A stretch of DNA of 46,646 nucleotides, taken from contig MHFG01000082.1 of NCBI GenBank assembly GCA_001804065.1, positions 1-46,646 of the forward strand. The letters are read 5' to 3'. The stretch comes from Omnitrophica bacterium RIFCSPHIGHO2_02_FULL_46_20 (GTDB lineage Bacteria; Omnitrophota; Gorgyraeia; 2-01-FULL-45-10). Positions within the stretch are counted from its first letter, which is position 1. Each line of letters starts with the position of its first letter. The position numbers and the translations under genes are program-made. The notes under the pieces were generated by a model. It was not told where the DNA came from, ran no database searches, and was given only the letters and a program-made list of their open reading frames with translations. Shown piece by piece: positions 6,697 through 45,322 of this stretch.

Positions 6697-7564
6697 TGTG
6701 AAAGCGGGAGAACCCCTTGAGCGCCACACATCTTTTAAGATAGGGGGGCCAGCAGCGCTCTGGGCGGAGCCGAAAGATATAGCAGAACTTAAAAAGATAA
6801 TTAAATTTTCCCGAAAAAACAGAATTCGGACTTTTATTGTAGGCGGAGGAACCAACATTCTAGCAAGCGACAGGGGCTTTAAAGGCATAGTGCTCCATCT
6901 CGGTTCGCCATTCTTTAAAAACATAACGATGCGCGGTACCACGGTAATGGTAGGCGCAGGATACAGCGTTCCGGCGTTAGTGAGATTATGTTGTGATAAG
7001 GGCTTGAGCGGATTAGAGTCGCTTATCGGTATCCCCGGCACTGTAGGGGGGGCTGTATATATGAATGCCGGTGGCTGGTACAGCCCGTTATACAAAAATA
7101 TCGGAGATTATATTATATCGTTAAAGGTTATGGACTACGAAGGTAATATAAAGATATTAAAGAGAGGCGATATTAAACTCGGGTATCGCCGCTCTAATCT
7201 TTCTCCCTATATAATATTAGCGGCAGCGCTCGGGCTCGGCAGGGAAGACAGTTCAGCCTTGACTTCCAGGTGCTCAAAATTTTTAAAGATGAAAAGGGAG
7301 AAACAGGTGCTCGACATGCCTAGCGCCGGTTGCGTATTCAAGAATCCGGATAATTCTCAGTTTACTACGGGACAGATGATAGATATGCTGGGTTTAAAAG
7401 GGGCGAGGATGGGTGGAGCAGAAATTTCGCGTAGGCACGCAAATTTTATAATAAATAAAAAAGGAGCGAGCTGTAATGACGTTTTAAAACTCATCGGCCT
7501 TATAAGTAAAAAGGTAATGAAGAATTACAAGATTCCTCTGGAGTTGGAGATCAAGATTATATGA
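6665..7564 (+). CDS. murB: UDP-N-acetylenolpyruvoylglucosamine reductase MurB. An alternative in-frame GTG start at 6698 lies just after the murC stop.
   Basis: FAD-binding domain motifs TSFKIGGPA and GGGTNIL. dcw position. Confidence 0.9.
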   Translation: MNYPKGLIKGNVKAGEPLERHTSFKIGGPAALWAEPKDIAELKKIIKFSRKNRIRTFIVGGGTNILASDRGFKGIVLHLGSPFFKNITMRGTTVMVGAGYSVPALVRLCCDKGLSGLESLIGIPGTVGGAVYMNAGGWYSPLYKNIGDYIISLKVMDYEGNIKILKRGDIKLGYRRSNLSPYIILAAALGLGREDSSALTSRCSKFLKMKREKQVLDMPSAGCVFKNPDNSQFTTGQMIDMLGLKGARMGGAEISRRHANFIINKKGASCNDVLKLIGLISKKVMKNYKIPLELEIKII

Positions 7565-8613
7565 TAGGGAAAGAGAGGAAGGGGCCAAGTCCGCCTGCCC
7601 TGCGCCATATCGGCGCAGGGCCTGACGGCTCGCCTCTCGGCGTCCGCCTCGGCGAGCCAAAGGTGAGACGGGAAGCCGAGGGCAGGCATGGGTCAAGATT
7701 CGGCAAGATAGGCGTGTTAGCGGGTGGGCCGTCGAATGAGCGCGGTATAAGCCTGCGTTCGGGCGCTGCCGTTTATAATGCCCTATTAAGCGAAGGGCTT
7801 GACGCGATATTCCTTCGCGTGAAAAACGATATCCGCAACGTCATCGCGGCAAATAAAATAGATGTCGCATTCATAGCTCTCCATGGAAGATACGGCGAGG
7901 ATGGAACGGTTCAGCAAGCTCTTGAAGACGCTGATATTCCGTATACTGGTTCTGGCGTAGAAGCATCGCGGCTCGCGTTCGATAAGGTCGCTTCCAAAGA
8001 GGCTTTTATAAAAAATAAGATCCCTGTTCCGAAATATATTGTGTTTGAGAAAGAAAAGTTTGACGTAAACGAAGCGGATAAAATAGGTTTCCCGCTTGTT
8101 GTCAAACCTCAATCGGAAGGCTCAAGCATAGGGCTTTCTATAGTTAAAGAAAAAAAATTTTTACGAACGGCAATAGATAAAACCTTTCAATACGGCGAAA
8201 GAAGCGTGCTGGAGGAATATGTTGCAGGAAGAGAGCTTACCGTGGGCATCCTGGACGATAAGTCTCTGCCGGTCATAGAGATAGTTACGAAAAATAATGT
8301 CTATGATTATGAGGCTAAATATGAAGATTCGACTACGCGGTATCTGGTGCCTGCCCCGATAGATAAAGAAGCGTATAAAGAAGCTGGGCGCTTGGGGAGC
8401 CTATCTCATAGCGCTTTGGGCTGCAGATCGTTTTCAAGAGTCGACATGATCATGGATAATTATGGAAAAATATTCGTATTAGAGGTTAATACGATACCGG
8501 GGATGACAGGGCGCAGCCTGCTGCCGAAAGCGGCGGCTGCTATTGGTTTGTGTTTCAGAGAGCTTTGTGTTAAAATCCTTGAGCACTCTTTATTAAAGGC
8601 GGGAAAACTATAA
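7561..8613 (+). CDS. ddl: D-alanine--D-alanine ligase. It has an about 48-aa Gly/Pro/Arg-rich N-terminal extension encoded by an inserted GC-rich element. An in-frame GTG at 7663 is an alternative start.
   Basis: ATP-grasp Ddl motifs IGVLAGGPSNERGISLRSG, HGRYGEDG and EVNTIPGMT. The ATG at 7561 overlaps the murB stop (ATGA). Confidence 0.85.
   Translation: MIGKERKGPSPPALRHIGAGPDGSPLGVRLGEPKVRREAEGRHGSRFGKIGVLAGGPSNERGISLRSGAAVYNALLSEGLDAIFLRVKNDIRNVIAANKIDVAFIALHGRYGEDGTVQQALEDADIPYTGSGVEASRLAFDKVASKEAFIKNKIPVPKYIVFEKEKFDVNEADKIGFPLVVKPQSEGSSIGLSIVKEKKFLRTAIDKTFQYGERSVLEEYVAGRELTVGILDDKSLPVIEIVTKNNVYDYEAKYEDSTTRYLVPAPIDKEAYKEAGRLGSLSHSALGCRSFSRVDMIMDNYGKIFVLEVNTIPGMTGRSLLPKAAAAIGLCFRELCVKILEHSLLKAGKL
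7569..7712 (+). mobile_element. Candidate MITE/RPE-like insertion: 144 bp, GC-rich, multi-hairpin, in-frame and stop-free inside the 5' end of ddl
   Basis: Direct repeat GATAGG at 7563-7568 and 7707-7712, exactly 144 nt (48 codons) apart. Deleting one repeat plus the intervening DNA gives ATGATAGGCGTGTTAGCGGGT = MIGVLAGG, a canonical Ddl N-terminus. Hairpins: 7597-7606/7612-7621 (10 bp perfect), GGCTCGCC/GGCGAGCC, and GCCTGCCCT/AGGGCAGGC. Confidence 0.45.
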
Positions 8614-9410
8614 TGACAAGGCATAAAAAATTTAAAAAGATGCAGCTGCCGAAAGCGTTTACGGGCGCCAAAGAATTTATCCTGCAAAGGGTAGCCGGTA
8701 TGATAGTTTTGGTAGTATTCATAATCTTTTCATGGGTCCTTATAACGGCGTTCCTCGAGAGGTCCGATTATTTCATGTTAAGATCCGTGGAGGCAAGAGG
8801 CGCTCCCGAGATAAGCCTGATATCTATAAGAAGCGATCTCTTAAGGCATTATAAGGGTAATAATATATTTAAGATAAATCTTACGGCAATCGCTAAGTCC
8901 CTGGAACTGCGGCACCCGGATGCTAAGGATATTATCGTAAATAGAGCGCTTCCGGACAAACTATTAGTTGAATTAAATTTTCGCAGTCCTGTCGCAATTT
9001 TGAGTAATGGTCTTTCATTTCCGATAGATAGAGAAGGCGTCATACTTGTCAGCAGGGATCCTGCGCGGCTGGGCGGCCTTCCCGTAATAAAGGGAGTAAA
9101 CCCGAAATATGCGGGTAAATTACACAAGAAAAACGAATCAAAAAATTTAGAAGCGGCGTTGAAGCTTCTCGATGAAATTAAAAAGGCCAGATTTCTTGAT
9201 AAGTACGGCGTGCGCACACTTGACGCAAGCGACATTAAAAGCCTGTCATTCGATCTAGGCGAAGACGGGCCTATGATCATAATAGGTTACGAGAATCTAA
9301 AAGAGCGGCTCTCGGTTTTAAGAGACACGCTAAGGGATCCGCGCCTCGTTCTTGATAAAATAAACTATATTGATATAAGATTTAAAGACGCGGCTATAAG
9401 CCCAAAATGA
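8613..9410 (+). CDS. ftsQ: Cell division protein FtsQ (single N-terminal TM plus a POTRA-like periplasmic part)
   Basis: Hydrophobic segment VAGMIVLVVFIIFSWVLITAFL followed by a roughly 200-aa domain. Conserved position between ddl and ftsA. The sequence itself is weakly diagnostic. Confidence 0.7.
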   Translation: MTRHKKFKKMQLPKAFTGAKEFILQRVAGMIVLVVFIIFSWVLITAFLERSDYFMLRSVEARGAPEISLISIRSDLLRHYKGNNIFKINLTAIAKSLELRHPDAKDIIVNRALPDKLLVELNFRSPVAILSNGLSFPIDREGVILVSRDPARLGGLPVIKGVNPKYAGKLHKKNESKNLEAALKLLDEIKKARFLDKYGVRTLDASDIKSLSFDLGEDGPMIIIGYENLKERLSVLRDTLRDPRLVLDKINYIDIRFKDAAISPK

Positions 9411-9465
9411 AACCCCGTATTGTATTCGGGAGAGGTTCCATGTGCAATTGCATAAGGGTTGGCGC
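9407..9465 (+). repeat. 59-nt start-codon-abutting element, unit 1 of a tandem pair
   Basis: ATGAAACCCCGTATTGTATTCGGGAGAGGTTCCATGTGCAATTGCATAAGGGTTGGCGC. Its ATG overlaps the ftsQ TGA. The 20-codon ORF ends in a TGA that overlaps the next unit's ATG. Confidence 0.85.
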
Positions 9466-9524
9466 ATGAAACCCCGCATTGCATTCAGGAGAGGTTCCAT
9501 GTGCAATTGTATAAGTGTTGGCAC
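9466..9524 (+). repeat. 59-nt start-codon-abutting element, unit 2 of a tandem pair
   Basis: 53/59 positions identical to unit 1 (hand count). The 20-codon ORF ends in TGA 9526-9528, overlapping the ftsA ATG at 9525. Confidence 0.85.
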
Positions 9525-10595
9525 ATGAAAAAGCCGATAATAATAACAGGTCTTGATATAGGTTCCTCGAAGATTTCGGCAGTCGCGCTCGAAGTTTTAG
9601 GCGGCGGTTTGTCGACCGTACTTGCTTACGAAAGCCAGTCGTCAAAAGGCGTGTCGAGAGGCGCCATCACTGGTCTTGATGACGCTTCAAATTCTGTGAA
9701 AAGGGTTCTGACGAGACTATGCGAAAAAACAGGAAAACGTCCTGACAATATTTACACAAATATCAGCGGCGAGACAATAAAGGGCGAGAAATCGCGCGGC
9801 ATGATCCCATTGTCGTCGAGAGGCAGGGAGGTTACAAGATCAGATATAGCAAAGTGCATAAATGCGGCAAGTACCATTCGATTGGCTTTCGACAGGGAGA
9901 TAGTGCATAAAATAGTTCTGAATTTTTCGATAGACGATCAGCTTAGTATAAAGAGTCCTCTTGGCCTATACGCCTCGCGGCTATCCTGCGAGATGTATAT
10001 GATAATAGCAAATCTAAATCACATCCAAAATATATATAAATGCGTCAATAGCGCCGGATACGGCATAAAAGAGGTCATATATTCAGGGATAGCGGAGGGG
10101 GTAAGTCTTCTGGAAGACGAGTGGAAGGAAGACGGCGTGATACTTCTCAATATGGGCGCATCCCTGACGGAAATTTCGATATTCTTCGCAGGCACTCTAA
10201 ACTATCTGGATGTTATGCCTCGCGGGGCTAATGACATTGATGGGGATTTGAAAAATAATCAGGCCTTCAATGATATTATTTCGCGGATCAAGGCAGGGAG
10301 CGAAGATTTTATTAAGAATGGTGGAAATATAAAATTAGTAGTTATTACCGGCGGCTTCGCTTTTTCGGAAGGCGTTGTAGATATTCTGGAAGAAAAATTA
10401 TCTTATCCTGTTAAGATGGGTATTGTGAGGAATGTTCAGGGTAACATATCCGGCATTGACAGTATGCGCGCCGTTTCCGCTATAGGGCTTGCAAGGTACG
10501 CGCAAACGCATTATCAGCCGAAACCATTTCAGCCAAAAGGCTTGGTCAAAGACATATCCGAAAAAGTGGCGGAGATATTTAATAACTACTTTTAG
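9525..10595 (+). CDS. ftsA: Cell division protein FtsA (actin-like ATPase), 356 aa. The start is moved from the ORF-track TTG at 9459, which lies inside the repeat, to the ATG at 9525.
   Basis: MKKPIIITGLDIGSSKISAV phosphate-1 motif, ITGGFAF. C-terminal amphipathic tail VKDISEKVAEIFNNYF. Follows ftsQ. Confidence 0.85.
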   Translation: MKKPIIITGLDIGSSKISAVALEVLGGGLSTVLAYESQSSKGVSRGAITGLDDASNSVKRVLTRLCEKTGKRPDNIYTNISGETIKGEKSRGMIPLSSRGREVTRSDIAKCINAASTIRLAFDREIVHKIVLNFSIDDQLSIKSPLGLYASRLSCEMYMIIANLNHIQNIYKCVNSAGYGIKEVIYSGIAEGVSLLEDEWKEDGVILLNMGASLTEISIFFAGTLNYLDVMPRGANDIDGDLKNNQAFNDIISRIKAGSEDFIKNGGNIKLVVITGGFAFSEGVVDILEEKLSYPVKMGIVRNVQGNISGIDSMRAVSAIGLARYAQTHYQPKPFQPKGLVKDISEKVAEIFNNYF

Positions 10596-10603
10596 AGGCG
10601 CCT

Positions 10604-11047
10604 ATGCTGTGTATGGAAGAGAGAAGGCATTTTATAAGGCATCCCATCTGCCATCCTCTTGAATTTGAACATGCCCCGAAGAAGATAAGAGAGAGGACAA
10701 AGACGCTGAACATAAGCGAAGGCGGTTTGCTGTTTCTCTCAAGGCATCCTCTTAAGAAGGATGATCTCATAATATTGAAGATGCCGCTGCAGGATAAGAT
10801 CTTTAGGGTCAATGCCAAGGTGATGCATATCACCAAGGACAGTGAAAGTCCCGGCCTTTTTAATATAGGAGTCTCATTCTACCGCTACCCTGACGCGTTC
10901 AAAGTAAAGCTTATCGAGCAGCTTTATCTAATAGACGAATATAGGATGCTGCGTTCACTCCAGATGGGCCGCGAAGTGACCATGCAGGAAGCCTCCGAAG
11001 AGTGGATAAGGCGCTACTCCAAGAGATTCGCAAGACTATACTGGTAA
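10604..11047 (+). CDS. PilZ-domain protein (predicted c-di-GMP receptor) with a roughly 45-aa C-terminal helical tail
   Basis: RRxxxR motif (RRHFIR) and D/NxSxxG motif (NISEGG) about 25 residues apart. AGAGG Shine-Dalgarno 5 nt upstream of the ATG. Confidence 0.7.
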   Translation: MLCMEERRHFIRHPICHPLEFEHAPKKIRERTKTLNISEGGLLFLSRHPLKKDDLIILKMPLQDKIFRVNAKVMHITKDSESPGLFNIGVSFYRYPDAFKVKLIEQLYLIDEYRMLRSLQMGREVTMQEASEEWIRRYSKRFARLYW

Positions 11048-11077: not shown

Positions 11078-11162
11078 CTTGATAGCAAAGGAAATTATAT
11101 TCGGTTACCCATATTAGATCCTTCCCCCGCCAAAGCGGGGTCAGGATCAAGAAAAATCTGCC
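11078..11162 (-). repeat. Repeat family 2, copy A (inverted relative to copy B at 34707-34829)
   Basis: The reverse complement reads GGCAGATTTTTCTTGATCCTGACCCCGC-tttg-GCGGGGGAAGGATCTAAT..TATAATTTCCTTTGCTATCAAG. It matches copy B with single mismatches in each conserved block. It contains the 32-nt hairpin 11117-11148. Confidence 0.7.
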
Positions 11163-34692: not shown

Positions 34693-34722
34693 AATATGCC
34701 CCGCAGGGCAGATTTTACTTGA
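34685..34722 (+). terminator. Probable intrinsic terminator of the hldA-kdsBADC unit. Its 5' arm includes the kdsC stop codon.
   Basis: TCAAGTAAAATATGCCC-cgca-GGGCAGATTTTACTTGA: 17-bp stem with 1 mismatch. The GC core TGCCC/GGGCA is flanked by AAAA and TTTT. Confidence 0.5.
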
Positions 34723-34829
34723 TCCTGACCCCGCCTTGCCCCGCCGCTTTCTTGCGAAAGCAAGAGGCGGGGCAAGGCGGGGGGAGGATCTAATTTAAGA
34801 AACCTGATATAATTTCCTATGCTGTCAAG
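34707..34829 (+). repeat. Repeat family 2, copy B, carrying a 70-nt GAAA-capped hairpin (34721-34790)
   Basis: GGCAGATTTTACTTGATCCTGACCCCGC ... GCGGGGGGAGGATCTAAT..TATAATTTCCTATGCTGTCAAG. The hairpin has a perfect 17-bp segment (34729-45/34766-82) and a 6-bp apical stem with a GAAA loop (34756-59). TCAAGTAAAA direct repeats at 34685-94 and 34825-34. Confidence 0.7.
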
Positions 34830-42120: not shown

Positions 42121-42179
42121 ATGAAACTTCGTATTGCACTTAAGGATAAGTTCCATGTGCAATCGTATGAGGTAGGCAC
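42121..42179 (+). repeat. 59-nt start-codon-abutting element, divergent copy
   Basis: ATGAAACTTCGTATTGCACTTAAGGATAAGTTCCATGTGCAATCGTATGAGGTAGGCAC. Roughly three-quarters identical to the other copies, with two compensating 1-nt indels. It ends exactly at the ATG at 42180. Confidence 0.75.
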
Positions 42180-43418
42180 ATGAAAAAACAAAATAAAATT
42201 TACATACTCGATGTAACAAATAGGGATGGCGTGCAGACATCTAGGCTTGGGCTGGCGAAACTGCAGAAGACGATGATAAATATTTACCTTAACGAGATGG
42301 GCGTTCACCAGTCCGAGTTCGGCTTCCCTGTTACGCATCATGAAACCAATTATCTGAATGCGAACTTAGAACTTGCAAAGATAGGCGTCTTAAAGCCCAT
42401 AGTATTGAGCGGCTGGATAAGAGCGATAAAAGATGATGTTGAGAAGGCGTGCAAGATGACAAAAGTAGAGAATCTCAACCTTTCGATATCTACATCCGAA
42501 CAGATGATAAGCGGCAAATTCCAAGGGAAATATACGAAAGAGGATGTCATAAGAGAGATGGCCGAGGCCGTGCATACAGCGCGTAAGCGCGGAATAAAAC
42601 TTGTCGGTGTCAACGCGGAAGACGCTTCAAGGACCCATCTAGACTATCTTATTAAGTTCGCAAGGGCCGCTAAAAAAGCAGGAGCGGACAGAATACGTTA
42701 TTGCGACACGCTTGGCTACGACGATCCTTTCACTATATATGAAAGAATAAAGATACTGGCAGAGGAAATCAAATTACCGATAGAGCTGCACTGTCACAAC
42801 GACCTCGGAATGGTCGTTGCTTGTTCTGTTGCCGGCGCTAAAGCGGCCATGGACGCGGGAGTTGACGCTTACATAAATACTACTGTGAACGGCATGGGCG
42901 AGCGAGCTGGCAATGCGGATCTTGTAAGCATTATACTGGCGATAAAATACGCCAGCGGTTTCCATGACAAATTAGCGCTGGATGAAAAGATCAAGCTTTC
43001 CTGCGCGTGGAAGATAGCGAAATACGCCTCGTACGCTTTTGGCGTGCCAATACCAATAAACCAGCCGGGTGTCGGCGCAAACGCGTTCGCGCATGAATCA
43101 GGGATACATGCCGACGGCGCATTAAAGGATAGGAGAAACTACGAGCTTTATGATTTTGAGGAGCTCGGCAGGGGCGAGCCCGAAATAGTAGAAACCGGAA
43201 GGCAGATTACCGCCGGAGAATATAGCGGTATAAGGGGCTTCAGAAACGTTTATGACAAGCTCGAGATAAAATTCGAGAACGAGAAGGATGCTACGAAGAT
43301 ATTAGAGCTTGTCCGCTACGCAAATGTCCATACTCACCAGCCGCTGACCGAGGATGAATTGAGATTCATCGCTAAATATCCGGAAATAGCGCGTAAAATA
43401 TTCACTATGACCGCATAA
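42180..43418 (+). CDS. HMGL-like (DRE-TIM) family enzyme: homocitrate/citramalate/2-isopropylmalate synthase-like, without a LeuA regulatory domain
   Basis: LDVTNRDGVQT (variant of the TLRDGEQ motif), HCHNDLGMVVA, NGMGERAGNADL, HESGIHADG. Confidence 0.6.
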   Translation: MKKQNKIYILDVTNRDGVQTSRLGLAKLQKTMINIYLNEMGVHQSEFGFPVTHHETNYLNANLELAKIGVLKPIVLSGWIRAIKDDVEKACKMTKVENLNLSISTSEQMISGKFQGKYTKEDVIREMAEAVHTARKRGIKLVGVNAEDASRTHLDYLIKFARAAKKAGADRIRYCDTLGYDDPFTIYERIKILAEEIKLPIELHCHNDLGMVVACSVAGAKAAMDAGVDAYINTTVNGMGERAGNADLVSIILAIKYASGFHDKLALDEKIKLSCAWKIAKYASYAFGVPIPINQPGVGANAFAHESGIHADGALKDRRNYELYDFEELGRGEPEIVETGRQITAGEYSGIRGFRNVYDKLEIKFENEKDATKILELVRYANVHTHQPLTEDELRFIAKYPEIARKIFTMTA

Positions 43419-43441: not shown

Positions 43442-43500
43442 ATGAAACCTCGTATTGTATTTGGGAGAGGTTCCATGCGCAATTGTAGGAGGGTTGGCAC
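43442..43500 (+). repeat. 59-nt start-codon-abutting element, copy 4
   Basis: ATGAAACCTCGTATTGTATTTGGGAGAGGTTCCATGCGCAATTGTAGGAGGGTTGGCAC. 52/59 positions identical to unit 1 (hand count). It ends exactly at the ATG at 43501. Confidence 0.85.

Positions 43501-45322
<1,822 letters not shown>

Follow-up and report, generated by a model that had tools for sequence, protein, structure and literature searches.

A 59-nt sequence located at the start codons of several genes is probably a small mobile repeat, non-autonomous and resident in Candidatus Omnitrophota, whose lifestyle is that of mycobacterial MIRUs; a sister lineage has a variant of 71 nt. Nine distinct copies were recovered in total, at six independent sites (one tandem pair, the rest solo). 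All six sites lie at the (A/T)TGAAA start of a gene and are co-oriented with that gene. Empty sites were found for four of the six, one of them a within-species polymorphism. An exact 59-nt polymorphism, one start codon occupied in two lineages, and length-preserving compensating indels make this evidence unusually clean.

Tandem units upstream of ftsA

The window, meaning the whole 46,646-nt stretch of DNA analyzed, contains two head-to-tail units between ftsQ and ftsA. The ftsQ ORF spans 8613-9410, and its TGA (9408-9410) overlaps the ATG of unit 1 at 9407. The ftsA gene starts at 9525 and its product matches Pfam SHS2_FTSA. Features of this junction are listed below.

9407..9465, + strand: unit 1, 59 nt; its ATG overlaps the ftsQ stop
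9466..9524, + strand: unit 2, 59 nt; adjoins the ftsA ATG at 9525
9407..9469, + strand: mini-ORF 1, 20 codons plus TGA; the TGA overlaps the unit 2 ATG (ATGA)
9466..9528, + strand: mini-ORF 2, 20 codons plus TGA; the TGA overlaps the ftsA ATG (ATGA)
9525..9530, + strand: ATGAAA, the ftsA start and Lys codon and third copy of the direct repeat (others 9407-9412 and 9466-9471)

Tandem Repeats Finder reports 9407-9530 as a repeat of period 59 with 2.1 copies, 90% matches, and a score of 206. Both units begin with ATGAAAC and end with GGCRC, and they differ at 6 positions (53/59 identical). The mini-ORFs at 9407-9469 and 9466-9528 encode the peptides MKPRIVFGRGSMCNCIRVGA and MKPRIAFRRGSMCNCISVGT, each followed by a stop. 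An earlier note on this DNA had described a 59-nt tandem pair, 53/59 identical, filling the ftsQ-ftsA gap; Tandem Repeats Finder and reading of the sequence bear this out. The unit ends and the unbroken ATGA stop/start chain through two 20-codon ORFs are likewise present as that note claimed. The same junction was found in 10 contigs from independent NCBI, ENA, and JGI assemblies, which rules out an assembly artefact.

Unit 2 of strains L004 and L005 has a swapped 3′ half (8 differences in 30 nt) within surrounding DNA that is 99.8% identical, a mosaic that reveals exchange with other element copies. Pairwise differences number 6 between units 1 and 2, 7 between unit 1 and copy 4 (below), and 7 between unit 2 and the copy on contig L009. 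The earlier note had proposed an insertion followed by a tandem duplication. The insertion is upheld by empty sites; the duplication is not established, the two units differing from each other almost as much as from other copies. Since each insertion re-creates an ATGAAA target, the array could just as well come from two insertions in succession, and a tandem duplication cannot be separated from them.

Further copies

Two solo copies lie elsewhere in the window.

42121..42179, + strand: solo copy 3, 59 nt, between serA (stop 42104) and a homocitrate-synthase-like gene (ATG 42180)
43442..43500, + strand: solo copy 4, 59 nt, between the synthase gene (stop 43418) and a 178-aa signal-peptide ORF (ATG 43501)

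Each directly adjoins ATGAAAA, the start of the downstream gene, and both confirm the earlier placement of the same unit next to two unrelated genes at 42121 and 43442. Copy 3 departs from the other copies by a +1/-1 pair of indels.

An internal pattern of the element, which omits the ATGAAA ends, matches the window at exactly these two places and the two tandem units, with 0 expected (100 shuffles). A scan of metagenome contigs returned two real further copies, on L009 and L010. The scan gives a lower bound, as JGI contigs L007 and L026 carry the element yet were missed. The genome contig scan returned only a chance match in a Gastranaerophilales MAG (L008); the GTDB representatives evidently do not include the source genome. 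Searches of ~238 kb of Omnitrophota DNA with nhmmer and a covariance model found no additional copies, and ~75 kb from the closest sister species contained none. An apparent relic at 2481-2528 of contig L027 was not significant (E = 0.29). The viral contigs, plasmids, and phages searched had no match to the element. The 71-nt variant was found in L017-L020, where it occupies the start codon that copy 3 occupies in the window.

Insertion at start codons

The gene starts at the six sites read ATGAAAAAG, ATGAAAAAA (twice), ATGAAAAAC, ATGAAAAGT, and TTG/ATGAAAGCA. Five of the 43 genes in the window start with ATGAAA and three of these are occupied by the element. The window has another 51 ATGAAA hexamers, all of them unoccupied; were insertion random among ATGAAA hexamers, the three window sites would have P = 3.6e-4. 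The L010 copy has TTGAAA as its left hexamer and ATGAAA as its right. The downstream genes are functionally unrelated and encode FtsA, the synthase, the secreted ORF product, an ABC permease, and a small cytochrome c. The earlier note had named, as evidence against its reading, genome-wide copies placed at random relative to start codons or lacking ATGAAA at both ends; the six sites recovered are all at starts. Purifying selection that removes all other insertions, and not targeting, could explain why only start codons are occupied. The L009 and L010 copies precede promoter-proximal first genes, so the element is not confined to positions between cistrons.

Orthologous junctions were compared with the filled sites. 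The ftsQ/ftsA junctions of the closest relatives read AGCCCAAA/ATGAGG or AGCCCGAA/ATGAGAAAACCG, a plain ATGA overlap. This element-free overlap is found in relatives at 90% and 73% FtsA identity, and it is the arrangement that deleting both units from the window had been said to restore. Relatives P0003 and P0004 (81% and 76% FtsA identity) have ftsQ-ftsA gaps of 67 nt and 10 nt, as given by gene coordinates only. P0020 and P0107, FtsA homologues with an N-terminal extension, were examined as candidate read-through calls; neither is related to the element.

Species at 97% synthase identity have an empty copy 3 site. Contigs L025 and L026 differ from the window at this site by an indel of exactly 59 nt between flanks that are 99.5-99.95% identical. 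ATGAAA is present once when the site is empty and twice when it is filled, which directly supports the claimed insertion at an ATGAAA site with the hexamer repeated at every junction. In more distant relatives, the empty site has ATGAGG, ATGAGA, or ATGAAG instead. The L009 site is empty in L027 (~94% nucleotide identity). Copy 4 has no clean empty site in the closest relatives, where the protein begins MSTYKNR as against MKNR, and would fit insertion only if an outgroup-like MK start was ancestral. Insertion is recent enough to differ among strains that are 99.5-99.9% identical, and two lineages have been hit at the same start codon. The copy 3 polymorphism could be a precise loss rather than a gain.

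Mini-ORF and inverted repeats

Frame 1 is open in all nine distinct copies and its terminal TGA overlaps the downstream ATG; the remaining frames have stops in 5-6 of the nine. Copies are 59 or 71 nt long, and as both values are 2 mod 3, the UGA always overlaps the AUG of the gene. The +1/-1 indels of copy 3 keep the length at 59 nt and scramble the middle of the peptide; length and frame are thus kept and the peptide is not. With nine copies at six sites, the open-frame and length regularities rest on few independent events. A Shine-Dalgarno (SD) core lies 7-9 nt upstream of the gene ATG in 8/9 distinct copies. The positions in the window, read from the sequence, are as follows.

43487..43493, + strand: SD-like AGGAGGG, 7-10 nt upstream of the gene ATG
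9454-9457 and 42169-42172, + strand: SD-like equivalents, AAGG and GAGG

The same position is GGAG in L009, GAGG in L010, GAGG in unit 2 of L004, and GGAGGG in L017. Unit 2 is the one next to ftsA in the window strain, and the AAGTG it has at this position is a poor SD. Empty sites reveal that native SDs persist upstream of the element's ATG. In previous work, ATGA-overlapping gene pairs were strictly coupled in 13/14 tested cases (PMC6728339). An in-frame GTG giving the downstream protein an N-terminal extension was rejected, that frame having stops in 6/9 copies. A leader-peptide attenuator was rejected for lack of both peptide conservation and codon runs. Scans for promoters or terminators found nothing above background.

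The units also contain conserved inverted repeats and an invariant core.

9470..9496, + strand: hairpin 1 of unit 2, AACCCC (9470-9475)/GAGGTT (9491-9496)
9411-9437, 42125-42152, and 43446-43472, + strand: hairpin 1 equivalents
9498..9527, + strand: hairpin 2 of unit 2, CATGTGC (9498-9504)/GCACATG (9521-9527)
9439-9468, 42154-42182, and 43474-43503, + strand: hairpin 2 equivalents
9435..9442, + strand: invariant core GTTCCATG, also at 9494-9501, 42150-42157, and 43470-43477

The core lies in GRGGTTCCATGYGC, which is complementary to both junctions, ATGAAACCYC on the left and GCRC/ATGAAA on the right. In unit 2, the 3′ arm of hairpin 2 contains the ftsA start codon and the 16-nt loop includes the purine-rich SD position. 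Hairpin 2 forms with the start codon in its stem and the SD in its loop in 5/8 minimum free energy (MFE) folds. A third pairing, mutually exclusive with hairpin 2, is equally well conserved. RNA folding energies are mostly the same as those of shuffles (z -0.3 to -2.7), and covariation is no better than a shuffle control (56/500 and 228/500). Of the two hairpins in the earlier note, the arms are where it placed them, as conserved inverted repeats; folding energy and covariation lend no support. Since neither measure beats shuffles, support for masking of the start codon is weak.

Proposed mechanism and alternatives

The element enters at the (A/T)TGAAA start of a gene, in the orientation of the gene, and leaves the hexamer on both sides. 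We propose that the gene's own ribosome-binding site, now before the element's ATG, drives a 20-codon pass-through ORF; at ftsQ-ftsA, the upstream ATGA overlap would instead deliver ribosomes to the mini-ORF. We infer that the mini-ORF is translated and that the terminating ribosome reinitiates on the gene at AUGA (-4 spacing), where the element-borne SD-like GGAG/GAGG would aid reinitiation. The segment GRGGTTCCATGYGC could pair with AUGAAA at either end, and hairpin 2 would mask the AUG of the gene until a ribosome translating the mini-ORF melts the hairpin, so that gene expression would stay dependent on native signals. The element appears harmless because the stop of its tiny ORF overlaps the start of the gene. 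ATGAAA is regenerated at both ends and the target is recreated, so tandem arrays would arise naturally by reinsertion or unequal exchange. No transposase or other mobilizing gene was seen in the ~63 kb of the source genome examined.

Several other accounts were weighed. On one account nothing was inserted, and the 118 nt is intergenic spacer inherited from an ancestor or else a dcw-cluster gene for a conserved leader peptide; the two units are indeed fixed in all 10 strain contigs of the species. We give this account practically no credence: the relatives at 90% and 73% FtsA identity have the 4-nt ATGA overlap and no spacer, the same unit is present at four other unrelated loci, and the peptide is not conserved and is frame-shifted midway in copy 3. 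Comparison of the orthologous ftsQ-ftsA junctions, as the earlier note had suggested, shows the 118 nt to be an insertion and already refutes a spacer. Spread could also have been enzyme-free, by microhomology template switching or recombination at ATGAAA in replication, with the tandem pair arising by slippage. The 6-nt direct repeats flanking every copy fit such a process, the mosaic unit 2 of L004 and L005 is evidence of segment exchange between copies, with its breakpoint at the conserved core, and recombination between repeats would give an exact 59-nt loss or gain. It is nevertheless very improbable, as 6 nt is very little homology to sustain a spread that reached dispersed loci repeatedly, precisely, and always in one orientation, the 51 other hexamers in the window are unoccupied, and the same start codon was hit by different variants in two lineages.

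It is unlikely, too, that a Y1 (HUH) transposase, of IS200/IS605 or REP-RAYT type, mobilizes the element as single-stranded DNA (ssDNA). Elements of these families combine stable ssDNA hairpins in subterminal position with a target that is short, fixed, and on the 5′ side of the left end, and their genome encodes a cognate Y1 transposase. Insertion would occur 3′ of (A/T)TGAAA without true duplication, the second ATGAAA being the right end of the element, and an internal TTCCAT would be the guide that pairs with cleavage sites at both ends. The fixed pentamer/hexamer target, seamless empty sites, strictly uniform orientation, and lack of end-to-end terminal inverted repeats, with an internal segment that complements both junctions, are all consistent with this route. 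The hexamers of L010 are those expected if the right copy belongs to the element, but a single A-to-T mutation also accounts for them. The ssDNA hairpins are weak (-5 to -11 kcal/mol; z -0.2 to -2.3), unlike the stable ones of those families, the putative cleavage sites would fall within stems and not at a distance, and no tnpA or RAYT gene was seen in the ~63 kb of this genome examined. It is rather unlikely that the element is chiefly a movable piece of cis-regulatory RNA, for example a thermosensor or translational switch, kept for regulation rather than just tolerated, with alternative pairings (center with 5′ AUGAAA, center with 3′ AUGAAA, or helix 3) that gate the start codon. The (nearly) invariant central GRGGTTCCATGYGC that complements both junctions, the 5/8 folds noted above, and a few double-sided changes that preserve pairing in H1, H2, and H3 argue for it. 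Against it, the downstream genes have no common function, energies and covariation are not significant, Rfam gives no match, and conserved inverted repeats could equally be DNA-level recombination signals. The element is moreover dispensable, since it is polymorphic between near-identical strains and absent in the sister species. Quite unlikely, in our estimate, is a double role in which the anti-AUGAAA segment both steers a single-strand transposase or guide-dependent recombinase on DNA and gates the start codon on RNA. If true, this would be a mobile element that recognizes translation start sites by base-pairing, and Omnitrophota may have co-opted it to tune genes such as ftsA.

If a mobile repeat is the correct reading, a second family, without evident sequence relationship to MIRUs, in a distant uncultured phylum would show that the strategy is convergent and probably more widespread. 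Gene callers run on metagenome-assembled genomes are misled by such elements, which leave "intergenic" gaps of 59-118 nt and spurious extensions at N termini. The elements could serve as strain-typing markers analogous to MIRU-VNTR, and termination-reinitiation and bicistronic expression cassettes could be studied on them as natural test cases. For finding the mobilizing enzyme, a handle is given by the fixed ATGAAA target together with the internal segment complementary to both junctions.

Relation to known elements

To our knowledge, MIRUs are the only described repeat that colonizes start codons as a translationally coupled mini-ORF. Their mobility is inferred mainly from between-species comparisons. 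MIRUs are described as mobile repeats that enter the start codons of mycobacterial genes and whose internal ORF is coupled at -4 (Supply et al. 1997, summarized in PMC12548453 and PMC3184786), and this mode of insertion and coupling is described as minimizing the impact on the gene (PMC12548453). The Omnitrophota element and MIRUs (40-100 bp) are both short interspersed repeats, often tandem, that lie in one orientation between operon genes. In both, filled and empty sites reveal short direct repeats, the internal ORF ends overlap the flanking stop and start (-4), and internal inverted repeats are present. The element therefore shares with MIRUs size and tandem arrangement, co-oriented insertion at start codons, -4 ORF overlaps, and empty sites with direct repeats. 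The two differ in having no evident sequence relationship, as judged by description, base composition, and host phylum. The element is 38-46% G+C in a 44% G+C genome, whereas MIRU inverted repeats are G-C-rich; the host phylum is Omnitrophota rather than Actinomycetota; and the direct repeat is the 6-nt ATGAAA rather than a tetranucleotide. The element also occurs at promoter-proximal first genes (L009 and L010) and has an internal segment that complements both junctions. Base composition and host phylum make homology very unlikely, so the element is of the same kind as MIRUs and not of the same family. The earlier note's statement that the unit belongs to no described family therefore stands for the sequence, which has no match in the collections searched, and not for the kind, as mycobacterial MIRUs share the lifestyle.

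The Neisseria REP2 and Borrelia IR repeats also lie just upstream of genes, which they supply with a ribosome-binding site and a start codon, and contain two stem-loops (PMC3184786). They differ in carrying a promoter and acting as 5′ regulatory cassettes, and neither an ATGA-overlap pass-through mini-ORF nor a start-codon target duplication is described for them. Synthetic bicistronic (BCD) cassettes, as outlined in PMC12548453 and bioRxiv 10.1101/2023.02.09.527918, work on the same principle, with a short leader ORF that contains the SD of the gene and a stop that overlaps its start. In these, the translating ribosome unwinds local structure and reaches the downstream AUG. BCD cassettes are engineered and not mobile; the element would be a natural, self-spreading counterpart.

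Miniature inverted-repeat elements (MITEs) such as Correia and RUP, and Rickettsia palindromic elements (RPEs), resemble the element in being small, non-autonomous, dispersed, and duplication-flanked, and some are tolerated in expressed regions through open reading frames. MITEs have terminal inverted repeats that abut the duplication, insert in either orientation, and accept loosely defined targets (TA, for instance), and RPEs go in-frame into coding sequence. The element, in contrast, enters in one orientation only, at start codons, and lacks inverted repeats that pair end with end. A classical MITE was rejected because the inverted repeats pair each end with the center (ATGAAACCTC/GAGGTTCCAT and TTCCATGTGC/GCACATGAAA).

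The whole window had 0 hits in Rfam at gathering thresholds, and a permissive Rfam search returned only two miRNA models (E = 5-7). Integron attC sites, known as the "59-base element", have RYYYAAC ... GTTRRRY cores, lie at the 3′ end of cassettes, and have an integrase nearby. An attC site was rejected, as the ends here are ATGAAAC ... GGCRC and the copies are in housekeeping operons (dcw and serA). The length of 59 that the element has in common with the attC name is a coincidence.

The 59-nt element, found at four places in the window, is well supported as a real and new family of small mobile repeats that resembles mycobacterial interspersed repetitive units (MIRUs) in its working. It is a new family of a known kind and not a new category.

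The window is 44% G+C, derives from a Candidatus Omnitrophota genome, and includes a dcw cluster (mraY, murD, ftsW, murG, murC, murB, ddl, ftsQ, and ftsA). Near-identical contigs are present in NCBI assembly GCA_001804255.1 (MHFQ01000055.1) and in several ENA and JGI assemblies. Tandem Repeats Finder detects an array with a period of 59 nt at window positions 9407–9530 (2.1 copies, 90% matches, score 206). A pattern built from the element's interior only matches at exactly four places in the window, where none is expected by chance. The copies, with units 1 and 2 as read from the sequence, and the ftsA start are:

9407–9465, unit 1; its ATG overlaps the ftsQ TGA at 9408–9410
9466–9524, unit 2; six differences from unit 1
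9525, start of ftsA
42121–42179, solo copy 3; ATGAAAA directly 3′ starts a homocitrate-synthase-like gene
43442–43500, solo copy 4; ATGAAAA directly 3′ starts a 178-aa signal-peptide ORF

Each unit holds a 20-codon ORF (mini-ORF) whose TGA overlaps the next ATG. The sequence, the repeat search, and the ORF list thus bear out the tandem pair and ATGA chain described in an earlier note, and the ATGAAAA starts agree with its observation that the unit adjoins two unrelated genes at 42121 and 43442. The junction recurs in ten contigs of independent assemblies and is therefore not an assembly artefact.

Orthologous junctions uphold the proposal that the 118 nt between ftsQ and ftsA are an insertion and not ancestral spacer. 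The closest relative recovered (L011, FtsA 90% identical) reads AGCCCAAA directly followed by ATGAGGCAT, and a more distant one (L012–L014, FtsA 73%) reads AGCCCGAA followed by ATGAGAAAACCG; both have a plain four-base ATGA overlap and lack the 118 nt. At the copy 3 site, two species with a 97% identical synthase have TAA, 15–16 nt, and then ATGAAAAAACAAAAT, without the element. Two contigs of the window's own species (L025 and L026; UppS protein identical, flanks 99.5–99.95% identical) lack exactly 59 nt there and keep a single ATGAAA, and the window and contig L024 carry the element with ATGAAA on either side. Within one population, copy 3 is present in some strains and absent from others. 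A third lineage (L017–L020, four assemblies, synthase 93% identical) has a related 71-nt variant at the very same start codon, reading ATGAAACCCCGCATT...GGGGTTCCATATG...GGGCAT followed by ATGAAAAAAC. A metagenome scan recovered two further genuine copies, upstream of a sugar ABC permease gene (L009) and of a small cytochrome-c-like gene (L010); in L027, at ~94% nucleotide identity, the L009 site lacks the element. Copy 4 is the one imperfect case: the ORF starts MSTYKNR or MSTHEKR in the closest relatives and MKNR in the window. It starts MKKR in the outgroup L017, so an ATGAAA start is plausibly ancestral there. By these sequence comparisons, the element is an insertion that has been mobile recently. 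The census comprises only nine distinct copies at six sites; it covered ~63 kb of the source genome, and its metagenome scan is demonstrably incomplete.

Two strain assemblies, L004 and L005, one of them an NCBI MAG, carry a variant unit 2 at 9942–10000 (window 9466–9524) with the 3′ half CATATGCGATTGTTGTGAGGTAGGCAT. In this half 8 of 30 positions are changed, although the surrounding DNA is 99.8% identical, and the breakpoint is the conserved core GGTTCCAT, which shows an exchange of segments among copies and points to gene conversion. Unit 1 of L005 also has unit-2-like bases. In the serA-synthase spacer upstream of the 71-nt variant (L017 9875–9929, also L018–L020), the near-palindrome GGGACTGTCC(C) occurs twice, ~10 nt apart; it is absent from the window, L015, and L016. 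At L027 2481–2528, a TPR/YfiO-like gene has a called start similar to the element's 5′ half (ATGAGACATAGCATTTACACTCAAGAGAGGTTCC), fused in-frame before a signal peptide; this could be a degraded relic, at a non-significant score (nhmmer E = 3e-4, CM E = 0.29).

At all six independent sites the element abuts the first codon of a gene and shares the gene's orientation. It is followed by ATGAAAAAG, ATGAAAAAA (twice), ATGAAAAAC, ATGAAAAGT, and ATGAAAGCA. Five of 43 genes in the window start with ATGAAA and three of these five carry the element, against 0/51 for the other ATGAAA hexamers on both strands (P = 3.6e-4 for random insertion among window ATGAAA hexamers). Either start sites are targeted as such or purifying selection clears every other insertion, and the distribution cannot tell these apart. 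The element also occurs outside intercistronic junctions: the L009 copy follows, by ~50 nt, a TGnTATAAT-like promoter motif (recognised by eye). Genes downstream are functionally unrelated, which argues against a regulon. The only element-free ATGAAA starts in the window are candidate polymorphic sites in other strains; no insertion was seen at either among 10 strain contigs:

1732, murD (ATGAAAGAT)
16738, dksA/traR-type zinc-finger gene (ATGAAAAAA)

Read from the element's ATG, all nine distinct copies have an open frame, closed each time by a TGA that overlaps the gene's ATG; the remaining two frames are interrupted by stops in five or six copies. Copies are 59 or 71 nt only, the variant having 12 extra bases, and both lengths are 2 mod 3. 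Copy 3 combines one inserted base (+1) in the 5′ half with one deleted base (–1) in the 3′ half, leaving 59 nt; the middle of its peptide is scrambled (MKLRIALKDKFHVQSYEVGT vs MKPRIAFRRGSMCNCISVGT) and the frame is regained before the stop. A GGAG/GAGG core lies 7–9 nt upstream of the gene's ATG in eight of nine copies, the exception being unit 2 of the window strain (AAGTG), where L004 and L005 have GAGG. The gene's native Shine-Dalgarno sequence, seen at empty sites, still precedes the element's ATG. The open frame, the lengths, and the element's own and retained native Shine-Dalgarno sequences point to selection on translation and not on the peptide. Strict coupling was found in 13/14 tested ATGA-overlapping pairs (PMC6728339). 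With these four regularities, that makes a pass-through mini-ORF the most economical reading: ribosomes would enter the mini-ORF by way of the native signals and, on terminating at its UGA, move over to the gene's AUG. At ftsQ-ftsA they would pass from ftsQ through mini-ORFs 1 and 2 to ftsA over three consecutive ATGA overlaps.

The two hairpins of the earlier note, AACCYC/GAGGTT (hairpin 1) and CATGYGC/GCRCATG (hairpin 2, gene's ATG in the 3′ arm), are present as pairings in every copy. In an inverted-repeat scan, the almost invariant segment GRGGTTCCATGYGC at the centre of the element also proved complementary to each junction (left, ATGAAACCTC/GAGGTTCCAT; right, TTCCATGTGC with GCAC-ATGAAA), so that a single internal "anti-ATGAAA" can base-pair with either start hexamer, never both together. 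A third pairing, ATTGCAC/GTGCAAT, is equally well kept and mutually exclusive with hairpin 2. Double-sided changes are:

hairpin 1, copy 3: CC/GG to TT/AA
hairpin 2, L004 unit 2 and L017: G-C to A-T
helix 3, L017: G-C to A-T

RNA folding energies of the copies are mostly no better than those of shuffles (z from –0.3 to –2.7), folds of the element as single-stranded DNA are weak, and 56 and 228 of 500 shuffle controls covaried at least as strongly as the copies. Because this support for folding is weak, the pairings are treated as conserved inverted repeats that may act at the RNA or the DNA level. As RNA, hairpin 2 might keep the gene's AUG covered until its 5′ arm is melted by a ribosome on the mini-ORF, enforcing coupling; as DNA, the central segment might hold the two ends in register for a recombinase.

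A classical MITE was ruled out, as end-to-end terminal inverted repeats are missing. Movement is reminiscent of IS200/IS605-type single-strand transposition in its short fixed target, seamless empty sites, single orientation, and internal segment complementary to both junctions, but hairpin stability is low and the ~63 kb of source genome examined contain no transposase gene. The L010 copy, with TTGAAA as left repeat and ATGAAA as right, also suits this mode. Its asymmetry fits a duplicated or recognised core TGAAA, the element's A upgrading a TTG start to ATG, and also fits a later point mutation in the left copy. By recreating ATGAAA at both ends the element regenerates its own target, so the tandem pair could arise by two successive insertions as easily as by local duplication. 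The earlier proposal of insertion followed by duplication stands for the insertion; pairwise differences (unit 1 vs unit 2, six; unit 1 vs copy 4, seven; unit 2 vs L009, seven) do not decide between duplication and a second insertion.

The element has no match in Rfam at gathering or permissive thresholds, in viral contigs, plasmids, and phages, or, except for one chance hit, in one-per-species GTDB genomes. The earlier note's failure to recognise a described family holds for the sequence, but the kind is known. MIRUs are 40–100 bp repeats at 40–50 loci in polycistronic intergenic regions, with filled and empty sites bearing tetranucleotide direct repeats, internal inverted repeats, and ORF ends overlapping adjacent genes (PMC3184786). 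They are described as inserting at start codons with an ORF coupled at –4, which limits the effect on the gene (PMC12548453, after Supply et al. 1997). The architectural features among these were looked for in the Omnitrophota element and found, with the 6-nt ATGAAA in place of a tetranucleotide as direct repeat. The two are the same kind by architecture, compared by description; homology is very unlikely because composition and phylum differ. Neisseria REP2 and Borrelia IR repeats likewise supply a ribosome-binding site and start codon but, unlike the element, have no coupled mini-ORF. Synthetic bicistronic-design cassettes share its operating principle. No report of such an element was found in the literature for Omnitrophota or beyond mycobacteria.

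Other repeats are present in the window. An unrelated ~120-nt family, G+C-rich as judged by eye against the 44% G+C genome, has copies at 7580–7698 and at L021 8757–8875, ~650 nt upstream of the window start (89% identical). In ddl it adds 123 nt (41 codons) in frame behind codon 3 (relative L012 MIGARFGRVGVLAGG vs window MIG[KERKGPSPPALRHIGAGPDGSPLGVRLGEPKVRREAEGRHG]SRFGKIGVLAGG), and in murF it is read in another frame, behaviour resembling Rickettsia palindromic elements. A third small repeat, in intergenic DNA, comprises a ~70-nt palindrome at 34721–34790 and a 54-nt segment at 34776–34829, 83% identical to the reverse complement of 11078–11131. Repeats mislead ORF calling in this region. 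The longest ftsA ORF (9459–10595) begins at a TTG inside unit 1 and encodes 378 aa instead of the real 356 aa, and the ddl ORF (7561–8613) is called as 350 or 316 aa depending on the assembly. ftsZ is absent from the entire window, and L012–L014 have neither ftsZ nor a PilZ-domain gene after ftsA. A PilZ-domain gene follows ftsA at 10604–11047, as it does in the contigs of close relatives L011 and P0004.
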